Positions 14,041 through 59,330 of a stretch of DNA of 64,000 nucleotides are shown one piece after another. The translations under genes and the position numbers were made by a program. Within the stretch, counting starts at the first letter, position 1, and each line of letters begins with the position of its first letter. The notes below the pieces were generated by a model. It was given only the letters and a program-made list of their open reading frames with translations. It was not told where the DNA came from and did no database searches. The DNA lies in the IMG/VR virus record IMGVR_UViG_3300036987_000083, positions 115,490-179,489 of that record; one strand, 5' to 3'. The DNA is from a virus.

Positions 14041-14069
14041 TTGACAGGCCGTAAGAGTCTCTGTAGCGT
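14041..14069 (+). promoter_or_regulatory. Sigma70-type promoter
   Basis: TTGACA-17-TAGCGT. Confidence 0.55.
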
Positions 14070-14075
14070 TGCACA

Positions 14076-14349
14076 ACTGGTCGAAGTTCTCCCTTGGGGT
14101 TCCGCCGTGTCACTCTCAACCCATCAGCACCTAACGATGAAACAAGGATGGCTTCAGGCCACAACCTTGTCCTATCGCGGTGGGTGGTCGTTTGAGAGTT
14201 TCAAGGCGCAGGCACAGGGTCGCGGTACCAATTGCCCCAAGTCCAGCGCCGTGGTTGCCATCGACCCGTCGCCACCAGACCCCTTCTAGCGAGCGCCCAA
14301 AGCGCATACGTCGGAAGGGGTCGGAATCGGAAAGATTCCGACCCTTTTT
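14076..14349 (+). ncRNA. Stand-alone structured RNA (long irregular hairpin, 6S-like candidate)
   Basis: Nested complements CTTGGGG/CCCCAAG, GTGTC/GGCAC, ACTCTCAA/TTGAGAGT, ACAAGG/CCTTGT between a promoter and a terminator. Confidence 0.45.
14318..14349 (+). terminator. Intrinsic terminator
   Basis: GGGTCGGAATC/GATTCCGACCC perfect stem followed by TTTTT. Confidence 0.75.
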
Positions 14350-14403
14350 CGTTTCAGCTTGAAAGGAAGTTAGCGGTAGGAAGAGCACTAGTAGCGAGAG
14401 TGT

Positions 14404-14474
14404 ACGGCGGTCGTCCAATGGTAGGACATCAGTCTCCAAAACTGAGTATGGGGGTTCGAATCCCTCCCGCCGTG
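14404..14474 (+). tRNA. tRNA-Trp(CCA)
   Basis: Cloverleaf; TCAGT-CTCCAAA-ACTGA. Confidence 0.9.
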
Positions 14475-14491
14475 CAGACAAAATAGAATAC

Positions 14492-14563
14492 GCGGGTGTA
14501 GTTCATCGGTAGAACGTCACGTTGCCAACGTGAAAGTAGAGGGTTCAACTCCCTCCACCCGCT
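14492..14563 (+). tRNA. tRNA-Gly(GCC)
   Basis: Cloverleaf; TCACG-TTGCCAA-CGTGA. Confidence 0.9.
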
Positions 14564-14646
14564 TGAAGTCGCAGTACACATAGCCATGGGGATGTTGAGG
14601 GTAAGGTCACTTGTACAGTACGATCTGCTGATGTACTTTCAGAAAC

Positions 14647-15045
14647 ATGAGGAAATGCAGTCGGTGTGAGAAGACACGGAGAGCGAATTCTTTTGGCAGG
14701 CATCACTGGTGCCTGCCCTGTTGCAGAGAAGTCCAGGCAGAGCGGGTCAAGAGGAATCCAGAAGCGGAACGTCAGAGAGTGAAAGAGGCTCAGAAAAAAG
14801 CCAAAGAAAGAAACCGAAACTTTGTCGATAAGGTCAAAGACAAGCCGTGCGTAGATTGTCTAAAAAAATTCAGTTCTTGGATCATGCAGTTCGACCACCG
14901 AGGCGAAAGTAAGAAAGAAGCAGATGTATCGGTTCTTGTTCACAAAGGTTCATCTCTCAAGAGAGTTAAGCGAGAAGTTCTAAAATGCGATGTTGTTTGC
15001 GCGAACTGTCACGCAGACAGAACACACAGAAGACGACTTGAGTGA
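14647..15045 (+). CDS. HNH endonuclease; stop lies inside tRNA-Tyr
   Basis: CVDC..FDHR..KCDVVCANCHADRT. Confidence 0.85.
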   Translation: MRKCSRCEKTRRANSFGRHHWCLPCCREVQAERVKRNPEAERQRVKEAQKKAKERNRNFVDKVKDKPCVDCLKKFSSWIMQFDHRGESKKEADVSVLVHKGSSLKRVKREVLKCDVVCANCHADRTHRRRLE

Positions 15046-15125
15046 GACGTGGCCATTGGCGGCCCACCAGACTGTAAATCTGGCCTCCTTCGGGATACCG
15101 GTGGGTTCGATTCCCACCTCACTCA
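15040..15125 (+). tRNA. tRNA-Tyr(GTA)
   Basis: GAGTGAG/CTCACTC acceptor; CCAGA-CTGTAAA-TCTGG; long variable arm. Confidence 0.85.
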
Positions 15126-15231
15126 CAGAGTTTCAGCAGGACGGACCATCTGGGTCTCTCCGGGTACCTGATAACAGAATAGCAGTGGTGTAGGGGTGGG
15201 GCTCTGGTTGTTGAAGAGTCCTGCCCCGAAT

Positions 15232-15577: not shown

Positions 15578-15589
15578 CAATCCAGTTTC

Positions 15590-15667
15590 AACGAGGCGCT
15601 GCTTCGGGTTACTTCTCTTGAAAAGAATTCCGGGAAACCGGGAACCTGGGGTGCAACATCTTCGTTG
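15590..15667 (+). ncRNA. Small RNA family X, copy 1
   Basis: AACGAGG/CTTCGTT terminal stem; shared CG..TACTTC..AAGAAT..AT core. Confidence 0.55.
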
Positions 15668-15688
15668 GTTCTTTTAGTAATGTTTTGC

Positions 15689-15770
15689 GGCGAGGCGTAA
15701 TCTGGGGTTCCTTCTTTAATGGAAAAGAGTCGCTGGGAAACCGGCAAACCTTGGGTAAGTATCCTCGCTG
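15689..15770 (+). ncRNA. Small RNA family X, copy 2
   Basis: GGCGAGG/CCTCGCT terminal stem; CTGGGGT/ACCTTGG; same core. Confidence 0.55.
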
Positions 15771-15774
15771 TTTT

Positions 15775-15875: not shown

Positions 15876-15961
15876 GGAAAGTAAATCAGACATGGGTCTG
15901 AGCCTGGGTGCTAACCAGTGCGCACCTTCCGGGGTGTGGGGATCGAGACCTCTGCTTTCCG
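15876..15961 (+). tRNA. 8/4 allo-type tRNA-Ser(GCT)
   Basis: 8-bp acceptor GGAAAGTA/TGCTTTCC; 6-bp D stem TCAGAC/GTCTGA; long V arm; 4-bp T stem; loop GTGCTAA. Confidence 0.7.
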
Positions 15962-15967
15962 CTTAAC

Positions 15968-16154: not shown

Positions 16155-16186
16155 CTGAGAAACTGAGAAACTGAGAAACTGAGAGA
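16155..16186 (+). repeat. Tandem 8-mer repeat (CTGAGAAA)x3 + CTGAGAGA
   Basis: Read directly from sequence. Confidence 0.9.
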
Positions 16187-16320
16187 CGAGGCGTAAGTGA
16201 GAGCTACTCCATGGATCTGTGGGTCGGGGGTTCGAATCTCCCTACAAGGATGTACTTGCATAGCTCAGCCTGGTAGAGCAACAGAATAAAAGATGCTTTC
16301 ACTCAAGTACCATCCTCGTC
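16185..16320 (+). ncRNA. Circularly permuted tRNA mimic (YrlA/Y RNA-like) inside a family X frame
   Basis: Order T-arm, closed acceptor hairpin TACAAG/CTTGCA, D-arm; TCTGT/ACAGA stem; outer stems AGTGAGAGC/GCTTTCACT and GACGAGG/CCTCGTC. Confidence 0.75.
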
Positions 16321-17012: not shown

Positions 17013-17042
17013 GCTTTGATTCTGTGTCATAGTTCAAAACCC

Positions 17043-17390
17043 ATGGCCTACAAGAAGAAGCAAGAGCAACGAGATAGTTGGAATCGTTGGTATGCTCGTA
17101 ATCAAACGAAAGTAAGAAAGGCCGTTCGTAAGCGAAAACTAGAGACGAAGCAGTGGCTTGATGCCTATAAGGCTACTCTCCGATGTGAGCACTGTGATGA
17201 AAATCACCCATCCTGTCTTCAGTTTCACCATCTCGACCCCACCAAGAAGGATTTGGAAGTCTCTCTCGGCCCCCAGTGGGGATGGAACATCAAACGTATT
17301 CTAAGAGAAATCGCAAAGTGCGCGATCCTTTGTGCCAATTGTCATATTAAGGAGCATTTCAAACTGAAGGGGTGTGGCCGAATGGCTTAG
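17043..17390 (+). CDS. HNH endonuclease; stop lies in the tRNA-Gln D-arm
   Basis: CEHC..CLQFHHLDP..KCAILCANCHIKEH. Confidence 0.85.
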   Translation: MAYKKKQEQRDSWNRWYARNQTKVRKAVRKRKLETKQWLDAYKATLRCEHCDENHPSCLQFHHLDPTKKDLEVSLGPQWGWNIKRILREIAKCAILCANCHIKEHFKLKGCGRMA

Positions 17391-17923: not shown

Positions 17924-18011
17924 CAAGCAGCAACAGCAGGGTTCGACTCCCTGAGAATCCTCTGCTACAGTTAAGCGGTAGACAGTGTGAGTTGTTTGGG
18001 CGTCGGCCCCC

Positions 18012-20276: not shown

Positions 20277-20645
20277 ATGTCCTCGACCATGCAGCAGTAT
20301 CGCGACCGCATTTCTAGGCTGACTGTGCTTTTAGGGAGTAAATGTGTAGGCTGTGGGGCTACACAAGATCTTCAGTTTGATCACATAGACCCCACCACTA
20401 AGTTGTTTACGGTTACAAAGGGCTGGGCCTTCTCATGGGAGAAGGTACTGACGGAGGCTAGGAAGTGTCAGCTCCTTTGCAAAAAGTGTCATGAAGCTAA
20501 GTCGCTAGCGGCCGGAGATATCCCGCCTAGAGCACTACACGGCACAGAGGGACGATATCGACACCACAAGTGCCGGTGTGCTCTATGCAAAGAAGCACAT
20601 CGAGATAGGATGCGAGAGTATAGATTGTGTAAAAACGGGGTATAG
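20277..20645 (+). CDS. HNH endonuclease; stop lies inside tRNA-Pro
   Basis: CVGC..LQFDHIDP..KCQLLCKKCH; HGTEGRY..CRCALC tail. Confidence 0.85.
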   Translation: MSSTMQQYRDRISRLTVLLGSKCVGCGATQDLQFDHIDPTTKLFTVTKGWAFSWEKVLTEARKCQLLCKKCHEAKSLAAGDIPPRALHGTEGRYRHHKCRCALCKEAHRDRMREYRLCKNGV

Positions 20646-21354: not shown

Positions 21355-21360
21355 CTGTTT

Positions 21361-21506
21361 CACCCGGCCGAGTAATTCTTACACGCAATCGTCATATGTT
21401 GGTTCGAATCCAACCCTCCCCACCTCACGGGGAGGTAGCCAAACTGGTTAGGCAACGGCCTATTAAGCCGTCTCGCAAGAGACTCTATGGATTTCTCACT
21501 CGGGTG
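21361..21506 (+). ncRNA. Second circularly permuted tRNA mimic
   Basis: GTTGG-TTCGAAT-CCAAC, then CCTCCCC-ACCTCAC-GGGGAGG hairpin, then D-arm GCC..GGC; outer stem CACCC..GAGT/ACTCGGGTG. Confidence 0.7.
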
Positions 21507-21519
21507 AAGCAAACTGTAT

Positions 21520-22449: not shown

Positions 22450-22523
22450 CAGGGTGTGGGGTCAGGCGAACACTAAGCCTCCCTAAGTGGGCCGGGTTCG
22501 ACCCGGAACACCCGAAATAGTTT

Positions 22524-22556
22524 GGGGCTGTAGCTCAGTTGGGAGAGCGCTTCGTT
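22524..22556 (+). pseudogene. 5' half of a tRNA-Ala, broken just before the anticodon
   Basis: GGGGCTGTAGCTCAGTTGGGAGAGCGCTTCGTT, then unrelated hairpin and HNH. Confidence 0.8.
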
Positions 22557-22589: not shown

Positions 22590-23036
22590 ATGGGCCTTCC
22601 AAAAAAGCCACGTAATCCCTGTCCAGTGTGCCAGCACACTGTTCAAAACATTCGGAGTCGCTACTGTTCGAATACATGTCAGATGGAACAGCAATACTTA
22701 AGCTACATTGAGCGCTGGAAGGCAGGGCAAGAAAGCGGTAACGTCGGTACCCAAGTTTCTAGTTACGTGAAGAAATACTTGCGCGCGAAGTATGAAAACA
22801 AGTGCTCTCGCTGTAATTGGTCGAAGAAGAATCCGGTGACGGGGACTGTCCCGGTGACCGTGGAACACATCGACGGGAACTGGAGAAACTCAAAAGAACA
22901 GAATCTCGACTTGATCTGTCCGTGTTGCCATTCCTTGACGCCCACCTATGGCAATCTAAACAAAGGACGGGGGCGTCCTATGCAGTTAGTAAGGGGCTTG
23001 TCGTCCAGCGGGAAGACACGGCGTTCGCAACGCTGA
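22590..23036 (+). CDS. HNH endonuclease; stop lies in the anticodon stem of tRNA-Ala(CGC)
   Basis: CSRC..VTVEHIDGNWRNSKEQNLDLICPCCHSLTPTYG. Confidence 0.9.
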   Translation: MGLPKKPRNPCPVCQHTVQNIRSRYCSNTCQMEQQYLSYIERWKAGQESGNVGTQVSSYVKKYLRAKYENKCSRCNWSKKNPVTGTVPVTVEHIDGNWRNSKEQNLDLICPCCHSLTPTYGNLNKGRGRPMQLVRGLSSSGKTRRSQR

Positions 23037-23064: not shown

Positions 23065-23158
23065 CAGCGGGATGGTGTGCAGGTACTACCTGGAATTCGG
23101 GGGCGCGAACGTGGCGTCATCTGGGTACCAGGCGAAGGGCACACCCGCCCATGTTTAC

Positions 23159-23257
23159 GGGGGATACCCTGCGCGGATAAATCGCCTCATAACAAAAGCG
23201 CAATGCAGGGTTTGAGGTATAGCGGCGATTGACTGGGTTCAAGTCCCAGGTCCCCTT
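23159..23257 (+). ncRNA. tRNA-ended RNA with a probable internal pseudoknot
   Basis: GGGGGAT/GTCCCCT plus T-arm CTGGG-TTCAAGT-CCCAG; crossing pairs CCCTGC/GCAGGG and ATCGCC/GGCGAT. Confidence 0.55.
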
Positions 23258-23271
23258 GGTAGTAGTTGTCT

Positions 23272-23382
23272 GGGCCAGTGCATGGGCAAAACCGGGTTCG
23301 ATTCCCGGCATCTCCACTCTATGGGGATGAACTGGTGTTCCTCACGCGCGGGGGTGAACGGGTTCGACTCCCGTCTGGTCCA
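23272..23382 (+). ncRNA. Two-headed tRNA-like dumbbell RNA (two acceptor+T-arm heads, both G3:U70)
   Basis: Outer GGGCCAG/CTGGTCC with ACGGG T-arm; inner CCGGG T-arm with CATCTCC-ACTCTAT-GGGGATG hairpin. Confidence 0.65.
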
Positions 23383-23383
23383 C

Positions 23384-23588
23384 AGTCTAGAAGGCAAATG
23401 GAAAGCCACTGGTAAAACGGAACCAGCGCCGAAAGGCACTGAAGCACGGGCTACCTCGAAAGAGGGTGAACGTAGTCACCTGCATGGTTGCGGATGCACC
23501 GAACGGGTCCCAAAAGGGTTCGCCAGGGAAGCGAGTTTCCAAGGGTGATGTAGCTTTTTCATAGAGGGTTCGATTCCCTCCTAGGCTA
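23384..23588 (+). ncRNA. 205-nt tRNA-like RNA with a giant multibranch variable domain
   Basis: AGTCTAG/CTAGGCT; D-like GGC/GCC; CTGGT/ACCAG; T-arm GAGGG-TTCGATT-CCCTC; insert closed by GGGCTAC/GTAGCTT. Confidence 0.6.
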
Positions 23589-23628
23589 TAAGTCAGTAAC
23601 GACCACGTGGTCGCGTCGTAGCGGTAAT

Positions 23629-23704: not shown

Positions 23705-23880
23705 AGGTAAGGTAGTCGGCTTAAGAGCAGCCAGCTTTAATGAGTGGGACCCCCTTCAGGACGCGAGCGCGGCGAAATGAAGGAAACGGAAGTAACCTCA
23801 GCAACCGTTACGCCCCGGGTCATACCCGGGAACCGAACACCCGCTTTGGTTTCCCTTTGGCGTAGCAGCACGCCTTGCCT
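23705..23880 (+). ncRNA. RNA mimicking 23S rRNA H43-H44 (L11/GTPase-associated centre) with a ~110-nt insertion
   Basis: GTCGGCTTAAGAGCAGCCAGCTTTAATGAGTG..GCGTAGCAGCAC, closed by AGGTAAGG/CCTTGCCT. Confidence 0.7.
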
Positions 23881-24028: not shown

Positions 24029-24070
24029 TTGGTAAGTGAGAGGTCCTGGGTTCGAATCCCATCGGGAGCA
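24029..24070 (+). pseudogene. 3' half of a second tRNA-Thr(GGT), starting at the anticodon loop
   Basis: TTGGTAA-GTGAG-AGGTC-CTGGGTTCGAATCCCAT-CGGGAGCA. Confidence 0.75.
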
Positions 24071-24071
24071 T

Positions 24072-24278
24072 ATGAAAAAAGCAATCAAGGCCGGAGAGAC
24101 GCCTGTGCGGCACGCTGATTGGACGATAGTAGTTCACGAAAAGGACCAAACTACTTGCAAGCACGGCTCAGGCAATTGTGAAACGTGTGGCACTAGTAAT
24201 CACCGCGATAGGCGGCACACGACTACTGGCGGTAAAGGGTTGGTCGCTCAGCTTCGAGAGAAGAAGTCCCGTAGGTAA
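24072..24278 (+). CDS. Small Cys/His-containing hypothetical protein
   Basis: ATG after GGGAG; CKHG..CETC. Confidence 0.45.
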   Translation: MKKAIKAGETPVRHADWTIVVHEKDQTTCKHGSGNCETCGTSNHRDRRHTTTGGKGLVAQLREKKSRR

Positions 24279-24637: not shown

Positions 24638-25135
24638 GTGGAAGCTCTTAAACTAGTATTGGATCTCCCACAGAAAAGGCAGAACACTCCGTTCACCTGT
24701 GGGCCAGTAGCCCTGTCTATGGTTTTGGCAGGATTTGGGGTAGTGAGCACCGAAAAGGGTCTCGCGAAACTCATGAAGGCCTCCCCCAAGCATGGAGTGC
24801 CTCCAGCTACCATCGCAAAAACGGCCAGGAAATTCGGTCTCAAGGCTAAAGCCGTTACGGGACTCACGATTGGTCAACTTGAAAAGCACATCAAGGCTGG
24901 ACGACCTGTAATCGCGGCCATCCAATCCTGGGCCAAGCGGCCCGTGAACTACGCAACGAGTTGGGAGGACGGGCACTACGTGGTGGTAGTCGGTATCGAC
25001 AGCCAGAACGTCCACTTGAGGGACCCTTCAACTCCATCTCTGCGGACTCTCTCCAGAGAGAGCTTCATGCGCAGGTGGCATGACTACAGCAAGGATGAAG
25101 TCTTTGTGCAGCTAGGAATCATTTTCAGTAGGTAA
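24638..25135 (+). CDS. C39-family cysteine peptidase
   Basis: RQNTPFTCGPVALSMVL..GHYVVVVGIDSQNVHLRDP (Cys-His-Asp). Confidence 0.85.
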   Translation: MEALKLVLDLPQKRQNTPFTCGPVALSMVLAGFGVVSTEKGLAKLMKASPKHGVPPATIAKTARKFGLKAKAVTGLTIGQLEKHIKAGRPVIAAIQSWAKRPVNYATSWEDGHYVVVVGIDSQNVHLRDPSTPSLRTLSRESFMRRWHDYSKDEVFVQLGIIFSR

Positions 25136-25472: not shown

Positions 25473-25479
25473 CTGAGTG

Positions 25480-25652
25480 CTGTGAGCGCATCACTCGCCT
25501 CAAAAAGGCGCTCCGACATCACAGTGGTACGAGAGTCTGAGTCTGTAGCGAGTCCAAAGGGCTCCGAGCGCAGTGATGCCTCGGCAAGTGGCGACACTTG
25601 GTGACACGGCCAGCCACGCGAAAGGACGCTCGTCGTCGTTAAACGCTGTACC
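25480..25652 (+). ncRNA. Structured intergenic RNA with a possible pseudoknot
   Basis: CTGTGA/TCACAG; loop GCATCACT complementary to downstream AGTGATGC; CAAGTG/CACTTG. Confidence 0.4.
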
Positions 25653-25659
25653 TTTTTCT

Positions 25660-26492: not shown

Positions 26493-26897
26493 ATGAAGCA
26501 GGAAACTTACCGGTCACCTTGGTTTGATCTTGAAGGGTGCTTGGCCTGTACGGTCAAATATTCGGACGGTTCAAAGGGTACTGTTCTTCAACACCGGGAA
26601 GTTATGGAGCAAGTTCTCGGTCGTAAGTTGAAGCCGCAGGAACTGGTGCATCACAAGAATAGCAACAAGCGGGACAACTCGCCTACCAATTTGAAGATCA
26701 CTTCCAGACCTGCGCACGCCGCCGAGCACGCCAAGACTAGGGTTCCCGAGCTTCTAGAAGTAACCTGTTTGGAGTGTGGAAAGACTTCGCTGAAGCTAGC
26801 TAGGCAAGTAAGGCACAACCAAATTGGTCAACAAAAGCCTGGTCCTTTTTGTGGTCGAAGTTGTGCTGGTAGATTTAACGGACGTAAACGTATTTGA
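26493..26897 (+). CDS. HNH endonuclease (HNH_3 type); stop abuts tRNA-Leu
   Basis: LQHREVME..LGRKLKPQELVHHKNSNKRDNSPTNL. Confidence 0.9.
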   Translation: MKQETYRSPWFDLEGCLACTVKYSDGSKGTVLQHREVMEQVLGRKLKPQELVHHKNSNKRDNSPTNLKITSRPAHAAEHAKTRVPELLEVTCLECGKTSLKLARQVRHNQIGQQKPGPFCGRSCAGRFNGRKRI

Positions 26898-27501: not shown

Positions 27502-27568
27502 AGATTCGAGCGCAGTCAGCTCCATGGTTGTTCACCCGTCGTACAAAACATACAAGGAGGCCGGTAAC

Positions 27569-28456: not shown

Positions 28457-28490
28457 GGAAGATTGGGTGAGTGGCTCATACCAGCGGTCT
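28457..28490 (+). pseudogene. 5' half of a canonical tRNA-Ser(GGA)
   Basis: GGAAGAT..GCGGTCT; pairs with the 3' half at 29048-29100. Confidence 0.8.
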
Positions 28491-28493
28491 TTT

Positions 28494-28578: not shown

Positions 28579-28579
28579 C

Positions 28580-29038: not shown

Positions 29039-29047
29039 TTCTGGATT

Positions 29048-50234: not shown

Positions 50235-51038
50235 ATGGACACCATCTACAAGTACCCACGCACAAAGCACATCTACGGCTCCAGGCTTCAAGACGGAGAC
50301 GAAGACCTTGAGGCTGTTCGATTAGACACGCTCAAGGGTAAGTATCTTGTTGTCGAAGAGAAGGTGGATGGCGCCAACAGCGGTATTTCCTTTGATTCGG
50401 ACACTTTAGAGCTTCGGCTTCAGAGTCGGGGACACTACCTCGGCTTGGAACCGAGCTACCGCGAGCGGCACTTCAACCTCTTCAAAAAGTGGGCAGTCCT
50501 TCATGAGGGCTGGCTGATGGACAAGCTTCAGGACAAGTACATTGCCTACGGCGAATGGATGTGGGCCAAGCACACGGAGTACTACGACCAACTTCCTCAC
50601 TACTGGATGGAGTTCGACGTGCTGGAAAAGTCGACTGGCAAGTTCTTCTCCACTGCCCGTCGTAAGGAATTCTGGAAGGGATGCCCGGTTGTTTCTGTTC
50701 CGGTGGTGCATGCTGGTCCTCTGGATAACCTCAAGCAACTCTCGTCCTTGATTCGACCGTCTCTTTACAAGAGTTCCAATTGGAAGGGCGCCTTGGCCGA
50801 AACGGCTAAAAGGAAGCAGTTGGACCTGGAGCGCATCATCAAAGAAACCGACCAGAGTGACTTAGCCGAAGGTGTCTACATCAAGTACGAAAGCGATGAC
50901 GAGACACTGGAGCGGTTCAAGTTCGTCCGTCATGAATTCGTACAGGCAATCAAGGACGCCGAAGGCCATTGGCTATCCAGGCCCATCGTCGAGAACCGCC
51001 TGGCAACAGGGGTCGACATTTTTGCGAGCCAGCTATGA
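50235..51038 (+). CDS. RNA ligase, Rnl2-like
   Basis: KYPRTKH..VEEKVDGAN..YGEW..EFDV..EGVYIK. Confidence 0.85.
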   Translation: MDTIYKYPRTKHIYGSRLQDGDEDLEAVRLDTLKGKYLVVEEKVDGANSGISFDSDTLELRLQSRGHYLGLEPSYRERHFNLFKKWAVLHEGWLMDKLQDKYIAYGEWMWAKHTEYYDQLPHYWMEFDVLEKSTGKFFSTARRKEFWKGCPVVSVPVVHAGPLDNLKQLSSLIRPSLYKSSNWKGALAETAKRKQLDLERIIKETDQSDLAEGVYIKYESDDETLERFKFVRHEFVQAIKDAEGHWLSRPIVENRLATGVDIFASQL

Positions 51039-51071
51039 CCCCGCTCGAAACTGGCATAGAGGTGACGTAGT

Positions 51072-51779
51072 GTGCCATGCTTGCGGAATATGGACATCAA
51101 AATATCCTACGACCGCCAGTTGGTAATTCGAGATTTCATAACCATCAATGGGGTGCGCCTGCGAGTTCGGTACAACCACGGTTACCCCTACGTCTCTTGG
51201 CCAGGGAGAAACGGACAAGTAGCTGTACATCGCATAGTCATGGAGCTTGCTTTGGGAAGGCGGCTGGAAGAAGGGGAGCATGTTCATCATAAAGATGAGA
51301 ATAAACTGAACAATGACCCCTCTAACTTGGAGGTTGTAGACGAGCATACACATATCTCTAGGCATATGATCAAGCGGAACACTCGCTACGATCCCGAGAA
51401 TTTTGTTTGCTCTGATTGTCGACGCTCCAAGGTAGCGCACAAGGCGCACGGTCTGTGTCTCAATTGTTGGTCAAAACGTCGGCGGCGTAAGTTAGTTAAA
51501 TACCCTTGTAAGATTTGTGGGCTGGAACGCACGGATAAACGAGGGACCGGGCGAGATGGGATGTGTGTCGAGTGTACCATTCGGCACTGGACAGCTTGTA
51601 TTTCCTGTAAGCGTACAAGAACTCAGATTTTGGAAAAACGAAAAACCAAAATCAATCTTCAAGGTCTATGCAGGGCCTGCGTAGCGAGGTTCGAGCGCAA
51701 AGCCGAAAGGGAACGCTGCACCTCTTGGAGTCATGCCGCCGCCTCTAGGGGAACAAAAGCGGTTGACAACGCACAGTAA
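51072..51779 (+). CDS. HNH endonuclease with Cys-rich tail
   Basis: VHRIVME..LGRRLEEGEHVHHKDENKLNNDPSNL. Confidence 0.85.
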   Translation: MPCLRNMDIKISYDRQLVIRDFITINGVRLRVRYNHGYPYVSWPGRNGQVAVHRIVMELALGRRLEEGEHVHHKDENKLNNDPSNLEVVDEHTHISRHMIKRNTRYDPENFVCSDCRRSKVAHKAHGLCLNCWSKRRRRKLVKYPCKICGLERTDKRGTGRDGMCVECTIRHWTACISCKRTRTQILEKRKTKINLQGLCRACVARFERKAERERCTSWSHAAASRGTKAVDNAQ

Positions 51780-51796
51780 ACGTAGTACTAGGGGGC

Positions 51797-52894
51797 ATGG
51801 ATACCAAGTACTCATGGGAGCCGCTCATTTGGCCTGAACTGGATAAGTCCCCCCAAGACTATATTTACCACGCCGAGGGCTCGGTCGGAGTCCACACCCG
51901 AATGGTCACGAACGAAATGCTTGGGCACGAGGGCTACTCCTCGCTGCCCGAGGTATCCCGGGATTTGCTCCACAGGACAGCGCTGCTCCACGACATCGGC
52001 AAGCCTTCCTGTACCCAGTTCGAGGGGGACCGAATTCGTAATCGGGGGCACGCTCGCGCTGGTGCAGTCCTGTCGCGAGGGCTGCTGTATGGTGAGGGGT
52101 ATGACCCGGTGCTTCGTGAGCACCTTTGCGCGCTGGTTCGCTCCCATACAACTCCCATGCACGCAATGAGGGCCAGTGACGAAGAGGTCCGGGCCACGGT
52201 GTTGAAGGCCAGTCTTATGCTGCGCTGCGACTACCTGACCATGCTAGCCGAGGCCGACAATCGGGGTCGCACTACCCCGGAATCCAAGGAACCCTTCATC
52301 TCCAACATCGGGTACTTCGCGGAATTTGCGAAGGAGTATAACTGTTTCGAGGGGCCTTACCCGTTCAAGAACGACCACAGCAAGTTCCTCTACTTCCAAA
52401 GCGGTGGTTCCCGCGACCCGGCCTACTTGGCGTATGATGACACCCAATTCGAGATGGTGATGATGGCTGGGTTCCCGGGGACGGGTAAGGACACTTGGAT
52501 TAAGAATTACTATTCCCACCTTCCCATGGTTTCCTTGGATGAGATTCGGAAGAAGCTCAAGGTCCCATCAGGGGTGAATCAGAGCCCGGTCATCATCAAA
52601 GCAAAGGAGCGCTTCAAGGAGTTGCTCCGCAAGAAGCAGTCGTTTGTGTTCAACGCCACGAGCTTGAACGCGGATCTTCGATTGCCTTGGATTAATCTTG
52701 CGGCGCAGTACAACGCGCGCATCCGCATTGTTTACTTGGAAGTGCCACTGCCGGAGCTGCTTAGGCGCAACAAGGCTCGGGAGGAGTCCGACCGCCTTCC
52801 TGAGGCAGCCATCTACAAGATGATGGCCAAGTGGAACATGCCCCACCCCTCAGAAGCGCACGTCGTCGAATACCACTACGGAGGCCAGTCATGA
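51797..52894 (+). CDS. HD-domain + P-loop kinase protein (polynucleotide kinase/RNA end-healing-like)
   Basis: YHAEGSVGVHT..LLHDIGKP; MMAGFPGTGKDTW..SLDEIR..NATSL. Confidence 0.85.
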   Translation: MDTKYSWEPLIWPELDKSPQDYIYHAEGSVGVHTRMVTNEMLGHEGYSSLPEVSRDLLHRTALLHDIGKPSCTQFEGDRIRNRGHARAGAVLSRGLLYGEGYDPVLREHLCALVRSHTTPMHAMRASDEEVRATVLKASLMLRCDYLTMLAEADNRGRTTPESKEPFISNIGYFAEFAKEYNCFEGPYPFKNDHSKFLYFQSGGSRDPAYLAYDDTQFEMVMMAGFPGTGKDTWIKNYYSHLPMVSLDEIRKKLKVPSGVNQSPVIIKAKERFKELLRKKQSFVFNATSLNADLRLPWINLAAQYNARIRIVYLEVPLPELLRRNKAREESDRLPEAAIYKMMAKWNMPHPSEAHVVEYHYGGQS

Positions 52895-53238
52895 GTAAGC
52901 AAGACAAGAAAAAGATTCGGGCAGCCTTCCGAAACGCAGTGTTCTCTCGCGATCGCTTCACCTGTAAGGGCTGCGGCGAAAAAGGAACCGAGGAGACCCT
53001 CGACGCCCATCACATCACTTCGAGAGATCTGATGGAATCGGGAGGGTACGTCGCCGAAAATGGAATCACACTGTGCAAGAAGGTTGGAGGCTGCCATGAG
53101 AAGGCTGAAGCCTTCGACGCCAACAGTAACATCGTACCCGGCTTCGAGCCTACGACGCTCTATTCCCTTATCGGAAGCACCTATGCCCAAGCAATCCAAG
53201 CGAGCGAAAAACTCAAGAAAGAAGAGCGCAATGCCTAA
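52891..53238 (+). CDS. HNH endonuclease
   Basis: FSRDRFTCKGCG..LDAHHI..NGITLC..CHEKAE. Confidence 0.8.
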   Translation: MSKQDKKKIRAAFRNAVFSRDRFTCKGCGEKGTEETLDAHHITSRDLMESGGYVAENGITLCKKVGGCHEKAEAFDANSNIVPGFEPTTLYSLIGSTYAQAIQASEKLKKEERNA

Positions 53239-53262
53239 GGGACATGTAGGGGCCGTGGACCT

Positions 53263-53715
53263 ATGAGTGCCATCGATAACTTTCGAGACTCCCATTATTT
53301 TTTGTCGAACTTCTACGAATCCCCCATGAAAGTAGACGGCAAAAGCTTCCGGACCAACGAGCACTTCTTCCAGGCAAGCAAGGCGACCCGTACAGAGGAT
53401 TTTGAGTACGTAAGAGCCTCCGCGACAGCGGCGCAGTCGAAGAAGCGTGGTCGCGAAATCGAGATGCGTGGCGACTGGGACAACGTGAAAAACGCTGTGA
53501 TGATGCAGGGACTCCGAGCCAAGTTTTCGGACCCCGTGCTTCGTCAGCAGCTCCTTGATACGGGTGATGCTGCTTTGATTGAGGGCAACAACTGGCATGA
53601 TGTTTGGTGGGGACGGTGCGACTGTTCCAAACATGGAGGCGATGGCCAGAACTGGCTGGGGCGACTACTGATGCAGCTACGTGAAGAACTCCGAAGAGAA
53701 GGTGCGGAACCGTAG
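53263..53715 (+). CDS. NADAR (YbiA-like) protein
   Basis: FLSNFY..TNEHFFQASK..KFSDP.LRQQLLDTGDAALIEGNNWHDVWWG..NWLGRLLMQLR. Confidence 0.9.
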   Translation: MSAIDNFRDSHYFLSNFYESPMKVDGKSFRTNEHFFQASKATRTEDFEYVRASATAAQSKKRGREIEMRGDWDNVKNAVMMQGLRAKFSDPVLRQQLLDTGDAALIEGNNWHDVWWGRCDCSKHGGDGQNWLGRLLMQLREELRREGAEP

Positions 53716-53897
53716 CGGTAAAACCTTGGCATGGCCGTGCTCTAGGGTCATCAGGCTGATCCGCTACAGGAATTTGATGTGGCTTAGGGGCTCCGCCGAG
53801 CCAGCTTCCTCGCGCAGAATCCCCTGTCACTTCAAGGGGAACCACGATTTCCGAGGAGGATTTTTGCGCTTCTAGAAAACTTGGGCGATTATTGGTT

Positions 53898-55016
53898 ATG
53901 CCCAACTTAAAAAAAGTGTGTTTGCGCTGCGGCAAAGCTTTACCCGCTACCCCAGATTACTTTCAACGGGACAACAGGAGTCCCGACGGTTTCAGGCATC
54001 CGTGTAAGGCTTGCCGAGGCACTACGCCGCACCCAGAGGCCAACCCCTACGGCAAGCTAGTAGAGCTGACTCGCCTCAAGCCTCTGCCCTTCATGGAACT
54101 TTGTAACCGACTCGACTTGTCCCCCGGCAAGACGAAAGCGCTAATCCACCAAGCCAAGGATGCAGGCATACTCATAAAAGTGAGTGATCATCACGTAGGT
54201 CTGCAGGTTCCAGGCGCTGACGAACGAGTCCAGCCAACAGGAATCATGCCCGTGGTGGGGAAGCGCCAAAAAATTGGAGTCATTAGCGATACCCACCTTG
54301 GTAGCAAGTACTGCCTGCGCGCTGAGTTGAAAGACTTCATCGAGTACGCGTATTCCCAAGGCGTTCGAGAGATTCTCCACCCAGGTGACATGCTCGACGG
54401 TAACTATGTCTCGCACGGCATGTTCGAACTGAGTCACGTCGGTCTGCAGCCGCAGATACAGGACCTGGTGGAAACGCTGCCGAAGAAGCCCGGCCTCTCC
54501 TACCATGCCATTACCGGCAACCACGATCTGACCTTCATGGAACAGAACGGTGTGGACGTCGGTCGCTCCATCACCAATGAGTTCAAGCGCGCTGGTCGCA
54601 ACGACTTCCACTTTTACGGCAACCGTGGCGCCTTCATCAAAATTCGCGGAGCCGTAGTACACCTATGGCACCCGATGGGCGGCGGCTCGTACGCCAAGAG
54701 CTACAAGCTGCAGAAGCAAATCGAGAAGTACGCCAGTGGCGAGAAGCCGCACATCGTACTGGCAGGACACTGGCACATCTACTGCCACGTGTATGAGCGG
54801 GGCGTGCACGCACTCGCCTGCCCCACGTTCCAAGGCGGCGGCTCCGCATTCGGCAAGGCGCTCGGTGGCGCGCCTACAATTGGTGGAATGATTCTCTCTT
54901 GGGAGCAAACAGCCCACGGGACCATGCGGAACTTCATTCACGAGTACCGAGCCTACTTCGAGAAGGAAACACCTCAGCAGCTCTTCACGGAAGAAGCATA
55001 CCGCGACAACCGCTGA
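53898..55016 (+). CDS. Metallophosphoesterase with N-terminal Zn-finger/HTH
   Basis: VISDTHLGS..HPGDMLDG..ITGNHD..LAGHWH. Confidence 0.85.
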   Translation: MPNLKKVCLRCGKALPATPDYFQRDNRSPDGFRHPCKACRGTTPHPEANPYGKLVELTRLKPLPFMELCNRLDLSPGKTKALIHQAKDAGILIKVSDHHVGLQVPGADERVQPTGIMPVVGKRQKIGVISDTHLGSKYCLRAELKDFIEYAYSQGVREILHPGDMLDGNYVSHGMFELSHVGLQPQIQDLVETLPKKPGLSYHAITGNHDLTFMEQNGVDVGRSITNEFKRAGRNDFHFYGNRGAFIKIRGAVVHLWHPMGGGSYAKSYKLQKQIEKYASGEKPHIVLAGHWHIYCHVYERGVHALACPTFQGGGSAFGKALGGAPTIGGMILSWEQTAHGTMRNFIHEYRAYFEKETPQQLFTEEAYRDNR

Positions 55017-55067
55017 AGGTTGACTACCGCACTGTAACATGCTAGACCCCCACTGGGGAGTCACCCA

Positions 55068-55481
55068 GTGGCTGAATCCGACACGCGCGAAATAGTCCTA
55101 AACGGTAGAAAATTCGTGGAGCACAGGCTGGCCTGCCCGGAGTGCCAAGCGCGGATGGCGCTCCGGGCATCCAAGTACGGGCTCTTCTACGGCTGCGTTG
55201 CCTTCCCCGCGTGCCGTGCCTCACATGGCGCTCATCCCACTGGGGCACCACTCGGTATTCCGGCTACAAAAGAAGTAAAGGAAGCGAGGATTCGCGCCCA
55301 CGACACGTTTGACCTCCTCTGGAAACAGGGGAGCATGTCGCGACACGAGGCTTACCGGTGGATGCGGACTGCGCTCGTGATGCCCAAGGAAGAGGCTCAC
55401 ATCGCTAACTTCGACATCGCGACTTGCAACAAGCTCATTCAAGCGGTTACGTTCTACCTGAAAGCCACAGTCTCGCAGTAA
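55068..55481 (+). CDS. Zn-finger protein (DUF3268-like)
   Basis: CPEC..FYGC..FPACRASHGAHP..PLG.PA..RIRAHDTFDLLW..HIANFD. Confidence 0.7.
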   Translation: MAESDTREIVLNGRKFVEHRLACPECQARMALRASKYGLFYGCVAFPACRASHGAHPTGAPLGIPATKEVKEARIRAHDTFDLLWKQGSMSRHEAYRWMRTALVMPKEEAHIANFDIATCNKLIQAVTFYLKATVSQ

Positions 55482-55511
55482 CAAACTACCCTCACAACTG
55501 GAGGTCACACC

Positions 55512-56187
55512 ATGAGTGCTGTAATTATCGAGATTCGGAGTGGTGAAGGTGGCGAAGACGCCAAGCGGCTGGTGATGGATCAGTTCGCCATTTACGGCAA
55601 GATGGGGGCTCGGAGGGGGCTTTGACATTGAGGTTCTAGACGCGAAACCGGGCCTGCTTGTCTTCCGCGCAGCAGGCCCTGAAGCCGCTGAGGCCTTCCG
55701 GCATGAACCGGGCGGGCATCGCTGGCAGCGGGTGCCTGAGAACGACGACAGAGTGCACACCTCAACCGTGACAGTCGCGGTATTCACGGAGCCTGACGAA
55801 GCCAGTTTCTACTTGAATCCTGCCGATTTGGACATCAAGACGACGCGAGGAAGCGGTCCAGGCGGGCAGAATCGTAATAAAACGGAAAGCTGCGTCGTAG
55901 CGACCTACAAGCCCACGGGGTTGGTAGTGCGCATCGACACTGAGCGCTCCCAACACAGAAATAAAGCGCTCGCTTTGGGGGTTCTACGGGCCCGGCTGTC
56001 TGAAGCCCACCAGGACGCGCGGGTGGGCAGCGAAAATGCTGCTAGAAAGGCCCAGGTGGGCTCGGGGATGCGCGGATGCAAGCGGCGAACTATTGCCATT
56101 CAACGAGACCAAGTGGTGGATCACATCCTTGGGGCTCGGACCTCCTGTACGAAGTACCTGAAAGGCGTATTTGACGGAGTCTGGTAG
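55512..56187 (+). CDS. PrfH-like class I peptide release factor expressed through a +1 frameshift at CTT TGA (55620-55625)
   Basis: IEIRSGEGG before the shift; GGHRWQRVP..RVHTSTVTVAV and GPGGQNRNKTES after; internal SD GGAGG then GGG CTT TGA C. Confidence 0.85.
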
Positions 56188-56279
56188 TCGCGTGAAGCCC
56201 GAGTCCCCTTTTGCATGTCAGGTAGCTTGTTCTCGTACGACAAGTATGCGCGAGGAGGTATGAGGTGTAAGCTGGGGCT

Positions 56280-56660
56280 ATGAGTGACATCGACACGGAT
56301 GCCTCCGCGCCGGGCCCCGTGCCCAACGCGGTGCCACCGCCACACACTTACGTGTTCCTTCTACTCCCTTGGAAACGGGTGGAGCCAGTGTTTAACCGGC
56401 TCTTCACCTACTCCATCTTCGGAGCGCTTGAAGGAAACTTCGTAGCGCGCAGGGCGCCAGCTCACATGATTAAACTAGTGGATGGCTCCGTAGCCTACCG
56501 CATGGACGCAGCCCACCTGCCAAAGTTCCAATTTGACGCTATTGGCTACTTCGTGGATTTGTACTCGTTTGGCGTACATAGATTCGTGACTACCGATCCT
56601 ACGCTCTCGATGGCACCCAACCCTCGGCAGGATATGTGGCTACCCGTAGGTAATGCCTAG
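56280..56660 (+). CDS. Hypothetical protein
   Basis: ORF in chain. Confidence 0.5.
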   Translation: MSDIDTDASAPGPVPNAVPPPHTYVFLLLPWKRVEPVFNRLFTYSIFGALEGNFVARRAPAHMIKLVDGSVAYRMDAAHLPKFQFDAIGYFVDLYSFGVHRFVTTDPTLSMAPNPRQDMWLPVGNA

Positions 56661-57030
56661 AGGAATTATGAACCACAAGCGCGGAAGAGCCAAGAGCAGC
56701 AGAGCAGGGTGTCTTTTATGTCGGCCATGGAAGCACCAAGCTGCAAAAGGCGGTAGCCGCCCGGACATCGTAGGACCGAGAAACTTCCGGCTCACACAGG
56801 ACAAGCTGGAGGATCTTTCCCACGAAGACTCAATGAGCGCCATCGACAAGGAGATGGCCGCGTTGTACTGCGACAACGACTACTGTGATTGTAATAACTA
56901 TGGCGAAGTACACGAAGCGATGCTCTCCGAGTGGCTTACCGGAGAAACAACCTCCAAGCTCGCCGAGATGGGGGTGACCGTCACTTGGACGAGGGAGCAC
57001 CCGGTACTCTGTCACTTGACAATCGACTAG
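56653..57030 (+). CDS. Hypothetical protein
   Basis: ORF in chain. Confidence 0.5.
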   Translation: MPRGIMNHKRGRAKSSRAGCLLCRPWKHQAAKGGSRPDIVGPRNFRLTQDKLEDLSHEDSMSAIDKEMAALYCDNDYCDCNNYGEVHEAMLSEWLTGETTSKLAEMGVTVTWTREHPVLCHLTID

Positions 57031-57049
57031 TCGTAGTGTACATGGAGTC

Positions 57050-57793
57050 ATGCCACTTCAGCTTCAGGTAGTTAGCGATCTCCACCTCGACCACCACAGA
57101 GATGGTGGACTGGATTTCCTTACCCATCTGCCCGTTGCTGCAGAGGTCTTGGTGATTGCCGGAGACTTGGCGGAGCTTCGTTTTTTCGGTCAGACCAAGG
57201 AAAGGCTTGAATCCCTGTGTAAAGGGCGTCGCCGCGTGTTTTTTGTGACCGGCAACCACGAATACTATAACGGAACGCCCTCGGCGGTTGACGCCCTGAT
57301 TGCGGCAGTGGAAGCGGAACTTCCTGTGCTTCGCGTGCTGCGACCAGGGCGGGTTGAAGAGCTAGACGGCCATCGTGTTCTCGGAGCTACTCTTTGGTTC
57401 CGAGACGACCCATACAACGCCATGTATGCGAAGAACATGAATGACTTCCACCAAATCAAGCAATTCACTCCTTGGGTCTACGAGCAGAACGTCGCAGCAT
57501 TGAACTTTTTGGAATCAGACCTGAGCCCGGGTGACATCGTTGTCACGCACCACCTGCCAAGCAAGGAGAGCGTCCATCCCCGATACACCGGCTCACCTAT
57601 CAACCGATTTTTTCTCTGCGACATGGAGGGACTTATTCGTGAGCGTAAACCCGCGCTGTGGCTCCACGGCCACACGCACCAAGCCTGTGATTACAAGATA
57701 GATACGTGCCGTATAGTAGCGAATCCGCTAGGATACCCGAGGGAGTCGTCCAACCTCACGTTTAACGACAAGCTCGTTTTGTCGGTACCCTAG
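57050..57793 (+). CDS. Metallophosphoesterase
   Basis: VSDLHLD..IAGDL..VTGNHEYY..VTHHLP..WLHGHTH. Confidence 0.9.
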   Translation: MPLQLQVVSDLHLDHHRDGGLDFLTHLPVAAEVLVIAGDLAELRFFGQTKERLESLCKGRRRVFFVTGNHEYYNGTPSAVDALIAAVEAELPVLRVLRPGRVEELDGHRVLGATLWFRDDPYNAMYAKNMNDFHQIKQFTPWVYEQNVAALNFLESDLSPGDIVVTHHLPSKESVHPRYTGSPINRFFLCDMEGLIRERKPALWLHGHTHQACDYKIDTCRIVANPLGYPRESSNLTFNDKLVLSVP

Positions 57794-58052
57794 GAGCGCC
57801 GTTGCGTAAGAAACCCGCCGTAGTAACGCCCCCTCAGTACGATGACGGAGTCGTGCGCGTAGCACAGTGTCCGGTGTGTAAGCGCGAGAACAGGCTGCTG
57901 ACCAAGCACGAAGAGAATGCACCCACAGAGGTTTGGTCCTGCGCGGATGTCGAGGGTTGCGGTCAGGTTGTGGCCACGGCTGCGACTGTAGCGCGTACAA
58001 AGGCGAGAGCCGCAGCCAAGGCTGCTGTCCGTAAGGTGATTGACGAAGGGGA

Positions 58053-59330
58053 TTGACGATGGCGTTGTCCAGGTTGCAGGGTACTCAGACGGAAGTCTTG
58101 TTGTGGTCCCCTCTTGAAGAAGTCGAGCTTGACGCACAGAAGCAGCTCATCAACACCGCTTCGCTTGCTCAGGCAGTGAAGGTGCTGTCGATGCCCGACG
58201 TGCACACCGGCTACGGTGTTGCTGTTGGGTCGGTTGTCGCTTTGAAGGACGCGGTTTGTCCGAATATCGTCGGCGTAGATATCGGCTGCGGCATGATGGC
58301 TTACCGCACCAATCTCACTGCTGACATGATGCCTAAGGATTTGTCCTCTCTGCGTGCGCGCATTGAAGAGTTCATTCCTATGGGCACAGGACAGTGCCAC
58401 GAAGACCCCTCTGAGTTGATTAAGGCCCCTCAGTACGAGGAGTTGTGGGCTCGCGTAGCTGCTGCGGACCAAACCAAGTGCACCATGGAGAAGGCCAAGC
58501 AGCAAATGGGCACCTTGGGTTCTGGAAACCACTTCATCGAGGTGTGTCTCGACTCGGAAGAGCACGTGTGGCTGATGCTGCATTCTGGTAGCCGTAATTT
58601 TGGCCTCCAGGTGGCGGAAGTCTACCAGTGGAAGGCCTCGATGCTTCCCATCAACGCAAACCTTCCTGACCAATCTTTGGCGGTGCTACCTCGTAGCTCT
58701 CCGGAGTTCATGGCCTATTGGACCGACATGCAGACGGCGCAGCTCTACGCAAAGCTGAACCGCGATACCATGTTTGAGTTGCTCCTTCGGGCACTTAAGG
58801 CTGAAGGCCTTAAGGTCGAGACTACGGACATTGGCGTCAACTGCCACCACAATTACGCCATGGAAGAGGTTCATGAGGGGGAGACGCTTGTCGTAGCCCG
58901 TAAGGGCGCCATCAGCGCAAGGAAGGGCGAAATGGGCATCATCCCGGGCGCGATGGGACGCAAGAGCTTCATCGTAGAGGGTTTGGGCAACCCTGAGAGC
59001 CTGCTGAGCGCCAGCCACGGAGCTGGCCGAAAGATGAGCCGTACCAAGGCGAAGAATACCTTCTCGCTAGACGACCTTCGCGCTTCCACCAAGGGAGTCG
59101 AGTGCCACATCGGCAAGGATGTCCTTGATGAGATTGCGGAGGCCTACAAGGACATCGAAAAGGTGATGCTCTATCAGGCGGATCTTGTCCGTCCCCTGTA
59201 TGAGCTGCGCTCCATCCTAACCGCCAAGGGCCATGATCAGAAAATCAAGGTCGATCGAAAGGCGGAAGCAAAGGCGCGAGAGGCAGAGCGTCGCGAGGCT
59301 CGCACCTTCAAGCAAGGTTGCCGTCAGTAG
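58053..59330 (+). CDS. rtcB: RtcB RNA-splicing ligase
   Basis: MPDVHTGYG..VGVDIGCG..GTLGSGNHFIE..LHSGSR..HHNY..RKGA..SASHGAGR..DEIAEAYKDI. Confidence 0.95.
   Translation: MTMALSRLQGTQTEVLLWSPLEEVELDAQKQLINTASLAQAVKVLSMPDVHTGYGVAVGSVVALKDAVCPNIVGVDIGCGMMAYRTNLTADMMPKDLSSLRARIEEFIPMGTGQCHEDPSELIKAPQYEELWARVAAADQTKCTMEKAKQQMGTLGSGNHFIEVCLDSEEHVWLMLHSGSRNFGLQVAEVYQWKASMLPINANLPDQSLAVLPRSSPEFMAYWTDMQTAQLYAKLNRDTMFELLLRALKAEGLKVETTDIGVNCHHNYAMEEVHEGETLVVARKGAISARKGEMGIIPGAMGRKSFIVEGLGNPESLLSASHGAGRKMSRTKAKNTFSLDDLRASTKGVECHIGKDVLDEIAEAYKDIEKVMLYQADLVRPLYELRSILTAKGHDQKIKVDRKAEAKAREAERREARTFKQGCRQ

Follow-up and report, generated by a model that had tools for sequence, protein, structure and literature searches.

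A putative translation-maintenance region of an uncultivated T4-like-tailed phage: a 47-tRNA island with endonuclease genes and conserved small RNAs, followed by RNA-repair genes

The DNA analyzed here, referred to as the window, comprises the last 64 kb (64,000 nucleotides) of a 179,489-bp IMG/VR virus record (IMGVR_UViG_3300036987_000083) with a CheckV completeness of 88%. It belongs to an uncultivated tailed phage of ~180-200 kb. The window harbours T4-type tail genes, encoding a sheath protein (9605-12469), two paralogs of the gp19 tail-tube protein (13211-13801 and 35862-36506) and a baseplate protein. The tube paralogs flank an island of transfer RNA (tRNA) genes (14404-35144), in which ARAGORN and Rfam searches revealed 47 intact tRNAs, at least one for each of the 20 amino acids. 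Endonuclease genes and structured small RNAs lie among these tRNAs. RNA-repair genes and a gene for a release factor (RF) homologue are located further downstream (50235-59330). All genes and RNAs of the stretch studied are on the plus strand.

No close cultivated relative of this phage was found: megablast gave no match and its sheath protein is at best 30-37% identical to that of cultivated phages. Related contigs were reached via sheath homologues with 65-79% identity (L003/L007, L004 and L005/L087) and, in the case of L089, via a DFP-like neighbour gene. G001 (L095), a complete phage with an IMG/VR record of 194,266 bp, is more distant than L087 and L089. Scans of viral contigs with the C39 peptidase, HD-kinase and RF open reading frames (ORFs) as queries yielded no usable relatives. 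The order of the tRNAs is the same in L003, L004, L087, L089 and L095. In a relative with 57% sheath identity the sheath, both tube genes and the baseplate gene are contiguous and no array is present. The array and its appended genes therefore represent a ~21-kb insertion between the tube paralogs.

At default thresholds ARAGORN and Rfam each identified 42 tRNAs (14404-35144), including no serine or tyrosine tRNAs. Relaxed ARAGORN settings and sub-threshold matches to tRNA-Sec were used to recover these, adding tRNA-Tyr(GTA) (15040-15126) and four serine tRNAs with the anticodons GCT (15876-15962), TGA (28494-28579), CGA (29106-29191) and GGA (30293-30378). A first-pass annotation, made from the sequence alone, had counted about 46 tRNAs and four non-canonical serine tRNAs, and both counts are borne out. 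By direct pair count, all four intact serine tRNAs have an 8-bp acceptor stem and a 4-bp T stem (8/4), together with a long variable arm and a serine anticodon; three of them have G as discriminator base and the fourth has A. The 8/4 tRNAs are real, yet not new. Such serine tRNAs were described in tRNA clusters of alpha-proteobacterial phages, with the same stem lengths, long variable arm and serine anticodons (Mukai et al. 2017, PMC5389517). The present phage differs from those described in that all four serine isoacceptors are of the 8/4 form, while close relatives retain the canonical 7/5 form, and in that one 8/4 gene appears to have come on an endonuclease cassette within a 7/5 gene. L087 carries 42 tRNAs, among which four canonical 7/5 serine tRNAs, L089 has both forms, and an 8/4 tRNA-Ser(TGA) is present in G001. 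A lone tRNA-Ile with the unusual anticodon AAT (35070-35144) lies 4.5 kb past the array, overlapping the start of ORF 35105-35803. Midway through the array lies a gene for a C39-type cysteine peptidase (24638-25135), which ends one base before tRNA-Arg(CCT).

The array contains seven HNH genes, one of which is a weak match, and one PD-(D/E)XK gene. Most of them end in or against the next tRNA, in agreement with the earlier notion of tRNA-coupled endonucleases (PHROGs and Pfam matches). The HNH genes at 14647-15045, 17016-17390, 20277-20645 and 22590-23036 (PHROGs) end 6 nt into tRNA-Tyr and within tRNA-Gln(TTG), tRNA-Pro(TGG) and tRNA-Ala(CGC), respectively. An HNH_3 gene (26493-26897) adjoins tRNA-Leu(TAG), and the HNH gene at 27524-28114 is kept in L087 and L089, upstream of the serine tRNAs. 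The weak HNH gene is located at 29221-29580. The PD-(D/E)XK gene (PDDEXK_5, 28463-29038; Pfam 81 bits over residues 44-156) probably has its true start near 28590. A further HNH_3 gene (51072-51779) lies among the repair genes. Endonuclease genes are found next to tRNAs in the relatives too, but next to different ones; L087 has an HNH_3 gene before tRNA-Glu, a PDDEXK_5 gene before tRNA-Ala and an HNH gene before tRNA-Ser.

One resident tRNA gene has been interrupted. ARAGORN in intron mode (-i) detected a split tRNA-Ser(TGA) (28457-29101), the halves of which (28457-28491 and 29049-29101) are separated by a 557-nt insert after position 34. When joined, the halves form a canonical 7/5 tRNA-Ser(TGA), with a 7-bp acceptor and a 5-bp T stem, and L087 harbours an intact 7/5 tRNA-Ser(TGA) at this site. 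The insert consists of the complete 8/4 tRNA-Ser(TGA) plus the PD-(D/E)XK gene. A group I intron was considered and rejected, as no Rfam match was found at E values up to 1 across 28457-29101. Just upstream of the HNH gene at 22590-23036 is a 5' fragment of tRNA-Ala (22523-22553), which matches the beginning of tRNA-Ala(GGC) with 97% identity. We read the split serine gene and the alanine fragment, from their sequences, as traces of mobile endonuclease-plus-tRNA cassettes moving among related phages. The replacement 8/4 tRNA-Ser gene would escape cleavage by the endonuclease of its own cassette. Orphan T arms with acceptor-like 3' strands were observed outside any tRNA at 24033-24070 and 17937-17964, one of them overlapping the start of ORF 24036-24278; these are likely tRNA remnants.

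Several small RNAs of the array are, on comparative grounds, real and conserved. In four classes the compensatory changes between homologues indicate that the structure is under selection. Family X comprises two tandem ~90-nt RNAs (15584-15773; copies at 15584-15672 and 15685-15773) upstream of tRNA-Gly(TCC), and has no match among Rfam families. Seven copies were found in four phages, five of them outside the window in three relatives, each time immediately preceding tRNA-Gly(TCC) or one of its neighbours. RNAalifold predicted 24 pairs for this family, of which 11 show compensatory changes. A 186-nt structured RNA that is not tRNA-like (25474-25659) has a homologue in L089 (691-864); 9 of its 43 pairs are compensatory. 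A 205-nt tRNA-like RNA (23384-23590) contains a structured insert of ~130 nt; a homologue is present in L087. All seven pairs of its acceptor stem are changed in L087 with pairing kept (AGTCTAG/CTAGGCT versus TGCCTCA/TGAGGCA), and 8 more pairs are compensatory; a pattern scan of viral contigs gave no match to this RNA. The conserved small RNAs vary between close relatives and occupy different slots of the array.

The fourth class is a two-headed RNA of 112 nt (23272-23383). Its inner head is a circularly permuted tRNA-like domain of transfer-messenger RNA (tmRNA) and its outer head an acceptor/T-arm minihelix. The Rfam model tmRNA_permuted (RF04321) matches with 40.8 bits, below the cut-off of 47 and at model positions 36-105 only. 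Homologues were found in L087 and L190, both located between two tRNAs. The alignment contains 30 pairs, 5 of which are compensatory, and a G:U third pair (G3:U70 type) is invariant in both acceptor-like stems. No tag reading frame is present in the window, L087 and L190 copies (each ~110 nt). A metagenome pattern scan returned one true homologue, in L190, and one unrelated tRNA-like match, in L189. The two-headed RNA has an exact core in common with the true permuted tmRNA of another phage array, L091, which scores 62 bits in Rfam, above the cut-off, and encodes the tag ANNIVAFERVAVAA. Agreement extends to the one-piece tmRNA of G001, whose T arm and 3' strand it matches at 26 of 27 nt. Judged by these matches, the two-headed RNA clearly derives, without a tag, from the tRNA-like domain of tmRNA. 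A single large tmRNA gene made up of the two-headed and the 205-nt RNA was rejected, as tRNAs and an ORF lie between them in L087 and no tag-like frame was found.

The L091 tmRNA itself (10251-10391, minus strand) is a compact 141-nt permuted tmRNA with a tag ending in VAVAA, located in an unrelated phage array and not reported by ARAGORN. G001 carries its one-piece tmRNA (tag ANDNVERAQLMAA) and its RtcB gene (L095 8807-9146 and 10001-11272) in the array between tRNA-Phe and tRNA-Ala genes, and the two-headed RNA of the window sits near the corresponding position.

Two-piece, circularly permuted tmRNA occurs in alpha-proteobacteria and some phages, and jakobid mitochondria possess a tag-less tmRNA. 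With two-piece tmRNA the two-headed RNA has in common the order of T arm, 3' acceptor strand, loop and 5' acceptor strand, as well as the G3:U70 pair; with the jakobid tmRNA it has in common that the tag frame is missing. It differs from both by its outer acceptor/T-arm head, which itself has a G:U third pair, by its length of only ~110 nt and by a loop of only 4-5 nt between the acceptor strands.

Two further modules resemble YrlA, a permuted tRNA-like RNA. The first (16185-16320) consists of a T arm, a closed acceptor-like stem, a D arm and a long outer helix (fold z = -2.1). It aligns over the full length of the YrlA model (RF02553) with 39.4 bits (16197-16305), against a cut-off of 69. The second (21359-21508), represented by a single sequence, has an 8-bp outer stem that closes (fold z = -5.0) and scores 22.6 bits (21368-21479), likewise below the cut-off. 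In both modules the model alignment and the minimum free energy (MFE) folds display the YrlA layout of T arm, closed stem, D arm and enclosing helix, and an RNA of the same architecture as the first is present in G001, 1.8 kb from its RtcB gene. Below its cut-off the YrlA model is unspecific, matching ordinary tRNA-tRNA junctions as well as 9 of 14 control genomes. Full-length YrlA matches in G002 and G003 were rejected as plain tRNA-tRNA junctions. Neither module of the window has a homologue in L004 or L087, and the three YrlA-like RNAs are too diverged for comparison by MAFFT and RNAalifold. No Ro60/TROVE gene was found in the 179-kb record (88% complete) or in G001-G004.

In bacteria YrlA, Ro60 and RtcB are encoded in one operon (PMC4201824, PMC7790460), and YrlA-like RNAs have been published for phages as well (Chen et al. 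2014, PMC4201824). The modules described here have in common with the YrlA, Ro60 (Rsr) and rtcBA systems (PMC4201824, PMC7790460) a permuted tRNA-like module on a long closing helix, and RtcB is encoded in the same genome here too. They differ in that they score below the Rfam cut-off, in that neither the window phage nor G001 has a Ro60/TROVE gene, and in that a Ro-binding helix is not recognisable.

Two more candidates were evaluated. A candidate tRNA-ended RNA (23084-23264) shows a T arm and an acceptor, with a fold z of -1.3 and no homologue, and is regarded as unsupported. The structured non-coding stretch at 23705-23880 (fold z = -2.8) had been taken for a mimic of the GTPase-associated centre (GAC) of 23S rRNA. 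This mimicry was rejected: the local alignment with E. coli 23S rRNA (RefSeq) lies in the range of shuffled sequences, and other windows of the phage score higher. The stretch matches E. coli 23S positions 1054-1084 with 24 of 31 ungapped identities, and ~0.6 such matches are expected by chance when the region is compared with all rRNA. Helix 43 is not formed in the MFE fold, and the stretch is absent from L087 and L089. Judged from its predicted fold, it may be a structured RNA all the same. The first-pass annotation had listed at least eight tRNA- or rRNA-mimic RNAs, with a mimicry going beyond described phages. The four classes with compensatory changes stand, the two YrlA-like modules are retained in part, by fold, and 23084-23264 falls away. 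The claim of an unprecedented extent was overstated, since 8/4 tRNA-Ser (PMC5389517) and phage YrlA-like RNAs (PMC4201824) had been published and the GAC mimic fails.

The RNA-repair genes encode an ATP-dependent RNA ligase (50235-51038; PF09414, Pfam 108 bits, KVDG motif), an HD phosphohydrolase fused to a P-loop polynucleotide-kinase-like domain (51797-52894), a NADAR domain protein (53263-53715), a calcineurin-like metallophosphoesterase (53892-55016), a second metallophosphoesterase (57050-57793) and an RtcB 3'-phosphate/5'-OH RNA ligase (58053-59330; Pfam 358 bits). Domain matches in Pfam, PHROGs and NCBIfam thus agree with the earlier naming of RtcB, the HD/kinase, two phosphoesterases and NADAR. 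Two ATP-dependent RNA ligases had also been named. One is the PF09414 enzyme; the candidate second ligase is a nucleotidyltransferase-only protein of 206 aa encoded in the array (29665-30285) and kept in L089. It has a KLDG motif at residue 26 and groups with PF09414-type ligases in the ESM Atlas (feature score 0.97, TM 0.89), and had no matches in Pfam, NCBIfam and PDB sequence searches. Its single-sequence AlphaFold model (pLDDT 41) was unusable.

The RF homologue of 224 aa (55512-56187) is of the RF1 type and lacks domain 1. ORF 55732-56187 (151 aa) represents only the 3' part of the gene, which starts at 55512 and contains a putative +1 shift site, CTT TGA C, at 55620-55626. The site reads GGAGG-GGG-CTT-TGA-C, with GGAGG 3 nt upstream of CTT. 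The joined protein aligns with RF1 positions 88-300, gapless at the junction, and scores 145 bits versus 105 for the 151-aa ORF alone. An 'RRGL-stop' site is found at the same codon in L092 (CTT TGA) and in L093/L094 (CTT TAG), and a +1 read-through signature occurs in at least 10 of 79 short RF homologues. Expression of this gene is predicted to require a prfB-type +1 frameshift. The PxT site of the protein is P-E-N, in a loop two residues shorter; most family members have P-P-T or P-P-N. The protein had been called PrfH-like. It is indeed an RF homologue without domain 1, but not of the PrfH class: RF1 models score 176-186 bits and the PrfH model (TIGR03072) 79.7 bits, against a cut-off of 166.65. 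Similarly, RtcB scores 140.1 bits with the model of the PrfH-associated type (TIGR03073), with a cut-off of 271.8. Three genes and 1.9 kb of sequence lie between the RF gene and RtcB.

PrfH and RtcB together rescue damaged ribosomes (Tian et al. 2022, PMC9304027). With the PrfH-RtcB2 pair (PMC9304027; Burroughs and Aravind 2019, PMC6514570) the present locus has in common an RF homologue without domain 1, encoded within 2 kb of RtcB and amid other RNA-repair genes. Unlike that pair, the factor here is RF1-type by sequence, RtcB is not of the PrfH-paired type, three genes intervene, a prfB-type +1 frameshift would be needed and the pair is not kept in related phages.

Several neighbouring genes were noted in passing. 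A DFP-like protein (phosphopantothenate-cysteine-ligase fold) and an M23 peptidase-methyltransferase fusion are encoded after the array (32738-35008). These genes are kept in many large phage contigs, some of which (L088, L090) have no tRNA array. Two phages sharing the DFP-like gene carry unusual tRNAs: L090 has a tRNA with a CTA anticodon, of the amber suppressor type (7096-7172, minus strand), and L088 has two tRNAs for which ARAGORN assigned no anticodon (12391-12580). These tRNAs may point to reassigned stop codons among related phages. Among the tail genes, a 768-aa protein (42829-45135) contains a Zeta-toxin/polynucleotide-kinase-like P-loop domain (residues 529-686); its relatives are minor head proteins according to PHROGs.

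Taken together, we see a little better than an even chance that this is a translation-maintenance region, in which parts for replacement, repair and rescue operate in parallel and not as one machine. What the analysis establishes is which genes and RNAs are present, how far they are conserved and how they are arranged; how these parts would be expressed and processed, what would be repaired and whether any RNA is linked to an enzyme we infer. The 21-kb island would supply 47 tRNAs for all amino acids, allowing translation to continue when host tRNAs are depleted or cut. Homing-type endonuclease genes would colonise the island upstream of tRNAs and endonuclease-plus-tRNA cassettes would move between related phages, one of which may have entered the anticodon loop of a resident 7/5 tRNA-Ser(UGA), bringing its 8/4 replacement. 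The small RNAs would be co-transcribed with the tRNAs and excised by RNase P and 3' tRNA-processing enzymes, as suggested by their acceptor and T-arm ends. The HD-kinase and the two phosphoesterases would heal RNA ends and the ATP-dependent RNA ligase and RtcB would seal them, next to NADAR, and the frameshift-gated RF1-type factor would free stalled ribosomes. Replacement of tRNAs, repair of RNA ends and a GGQ factor impaired in codon recognition near RtcB fit a counter to host nucleases cutting tRNA or rRNA, a view that the analysis supports by homology to known systems. Such a layered capacity to replace, repair and rescue follows from established systems (PMC10264068, PMC9304027, PMC6514570), and phage tRNAs have been described as an escape from anticodon nucleases and other tRNA-targeting defences (van den Berg et al. 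2023, PMC10264068).

Several observations weigh against this reading. The repair genes begin 15 kb past the array, behind tail and baseplate genes. The complete phages G001 and G002, whose RtcB proteins are the nearest (61-65% identity), have no RF-like gene, PF09414 ligase, SmpB or TROVE, and the 79.9-kb contig of the close relative L089 is not found among the 120 best RtcB homologues. For the ATP-dependent ligase and the HD-kinase, the assignment is based on domain content only. The candidates at 16185-16320, 21359-21508, 23084-23264 and 23705-23880 have no homologue in three relatives covering their positions, so that conservation of the mimic RNAs in relatives holds for family X and the two-headed, 205-nt and 186-nt RNAs and not for these four. 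A survey of 80 viral RtcB loci showed tRNAs within 10 kb in 26, an RF-like gene in one and the other repair genes in almost none; in a crude comparison, tRNAs were found at 7 of 86 sheath-gene and other loci. The RtcB gene of G001 (65% identity) lies inside the homologous array, beside the tmRNA and the YrlA-like RNA. RtcB thus tends to lie near phage tRNA arrays. This link is real, and the wider set of repair and rescue genes is, as far as the genomes compared show, a shifting assortment and no fixed operon, because of the locus counts and the findings in G001, G002 and L089. Of the co-occurrence of mimic RNAs with repair genes that was proposed earlier as a check, what is seen is the link of RtcB with tRNAs; Ro60/TROVE is absent, and G001 and G002 lack the PF09414 ligase. 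The idea that all parts form one unit is not upheld, as they are not co-inherited and tail and baseplate genes set the island apart.

That idea was the core of the original proposal, in which tRNA-, tmRNA- and rRNA-like RNAs serve as decoys or sacrificial substrates, or as RNAs matured by the ligases, in one layered counter-defence. The tRNA features under selection in several RNAs (acceptors, T arms and G:U third pairs) speak for it, as do the joint presence of tmRNA, YrlA-like RNA and RtcB inside the G001 array, the frequent location of RtcB near phage tRNAs and the bacterial operon of YrlA, Ro60 and RtcB (PMC4201824, PMC7790460). However, none of the odd RNAs has retained an anticodon loop of the kind that known nucleases target, the likeness to rRNA does not exceed chance, the RNAs differ among close relatives and shift within the array, the repair set is not co-inherited and no Ro60 gene was found. 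One integrated system is therefore quite improbable. It is also unlikely that the odd RNAs are functionless remnants of tRNA and tmRNA genes, broken by repeated endonuclease insertion and recombination. Clear fragments do occur (the tRNA-Ala 5' part at 22523-22553, a tRNA 3' half at 24033-24070 and the split serine gene), the YrlA model also matches tRNA-tRNA junctions and 9 of 14 control genomes, and four candidates lack homologues in the relatives. Against decay stand the compensatory changes in family X and the two-headed, 205-nt and 186-nt RNAs, and the long outer helices closing the YrlA-like modules, which a junction remnant would not need.

The conserved RNAs could also serve the array itself, for example by punctuating its processing, stabilising transcripts or regulating the expression of tRNAs or endonucleases, and not act on host translation at all. 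The elements lie between tRNAs on the same strand and family X is constantly found just upstream of tRNA-Gly(TCC) or neighbours in four phages; the tRNA cluster of phage T4 likewise contains two stable RNAs of unknown role. Processing signals would not need the alanine-identity G:U pairs in both heads of the two-headed RNA, however, and the positions of the elements change between relatives; this explanation is unlikely. There is an equally slim chance that RNase P and 3'-end enzymes process the two-headed RNA into paired pieces with two alanine-accepting ends, and that, with the YrlA-like RNAs without Ro60, it would belong to a toolkit of tRNA-derived RNAs that works beside RtcB and the frameshift-gated RF1-type factor and is directed at host alanyl-tRNA synthetase (AlaRS) and SmpB, stalled ribosomes or host nucleases targeting RNA.

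A translation-maintenance region made of parallel parts has counterparts in known phages. The tRNA cluster of phage T4 comprises, next to its two stable RNAs, the SegB homing endonuclease, and T4 Pnkp and Rnl1 repair tRNA-Lys cut by PrrC. Both phages have a tRNA cluster that contains stable non-tRNA RNAs with tRNA-like ends as well as free-standing genes for homing endonucleases, and both encode separate healing and sealing enzymes elsewhere in the genome. In comparison with T4, the present phage has ~6x more tRNAs, at least eight endonuclease genes and a cassette splitting a tRNA and carrying its replacement. Its putative healing enzyme is an HD-kinase fusion and not a kinase-phosphatase, and RtcB and an RF-type factor are added. 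Huge phages carry translation gene sets as well (Al-Shayeb et al. 2020, PMC7162821). With these sets the present one has in common a large complement of tRNAs, genes of the tmRNA and release-factor types and a proposed role in the upkeep of translation under attack (PMC7162821; PMC10264068). The present phage differs by having a tag-less two-headed derivative in place of tmRNA and an RF without domain 1 that would need a frameshift.

Large phages are known to harbour tRNAs, tmRNAs, release factors and RNA ligases, which probably allow them to sustain translation while the host cleaves its own tRNAs or ribosomes. The arrays themselves appear to turn over by endonuclease-plus-tRNA cassettes, by which a resident tRNA gene is destroyed and a structurally different replacement is supplied. 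Phage tRNA arrays furthermore hold several conserved structured RNAs that appear to be under selection, one of them clearly descended from tmRNA but without a tag. If the toolkit of tRNA-derived RNAs considered above were true, it would constitute a counter-defence RNA layer undescribed for any phage. If functional, the small RNAs would form a new class of RNAs by which phages act on the translation apparatus of the host; if they are not, the region still shows how tRNA arrays are built.

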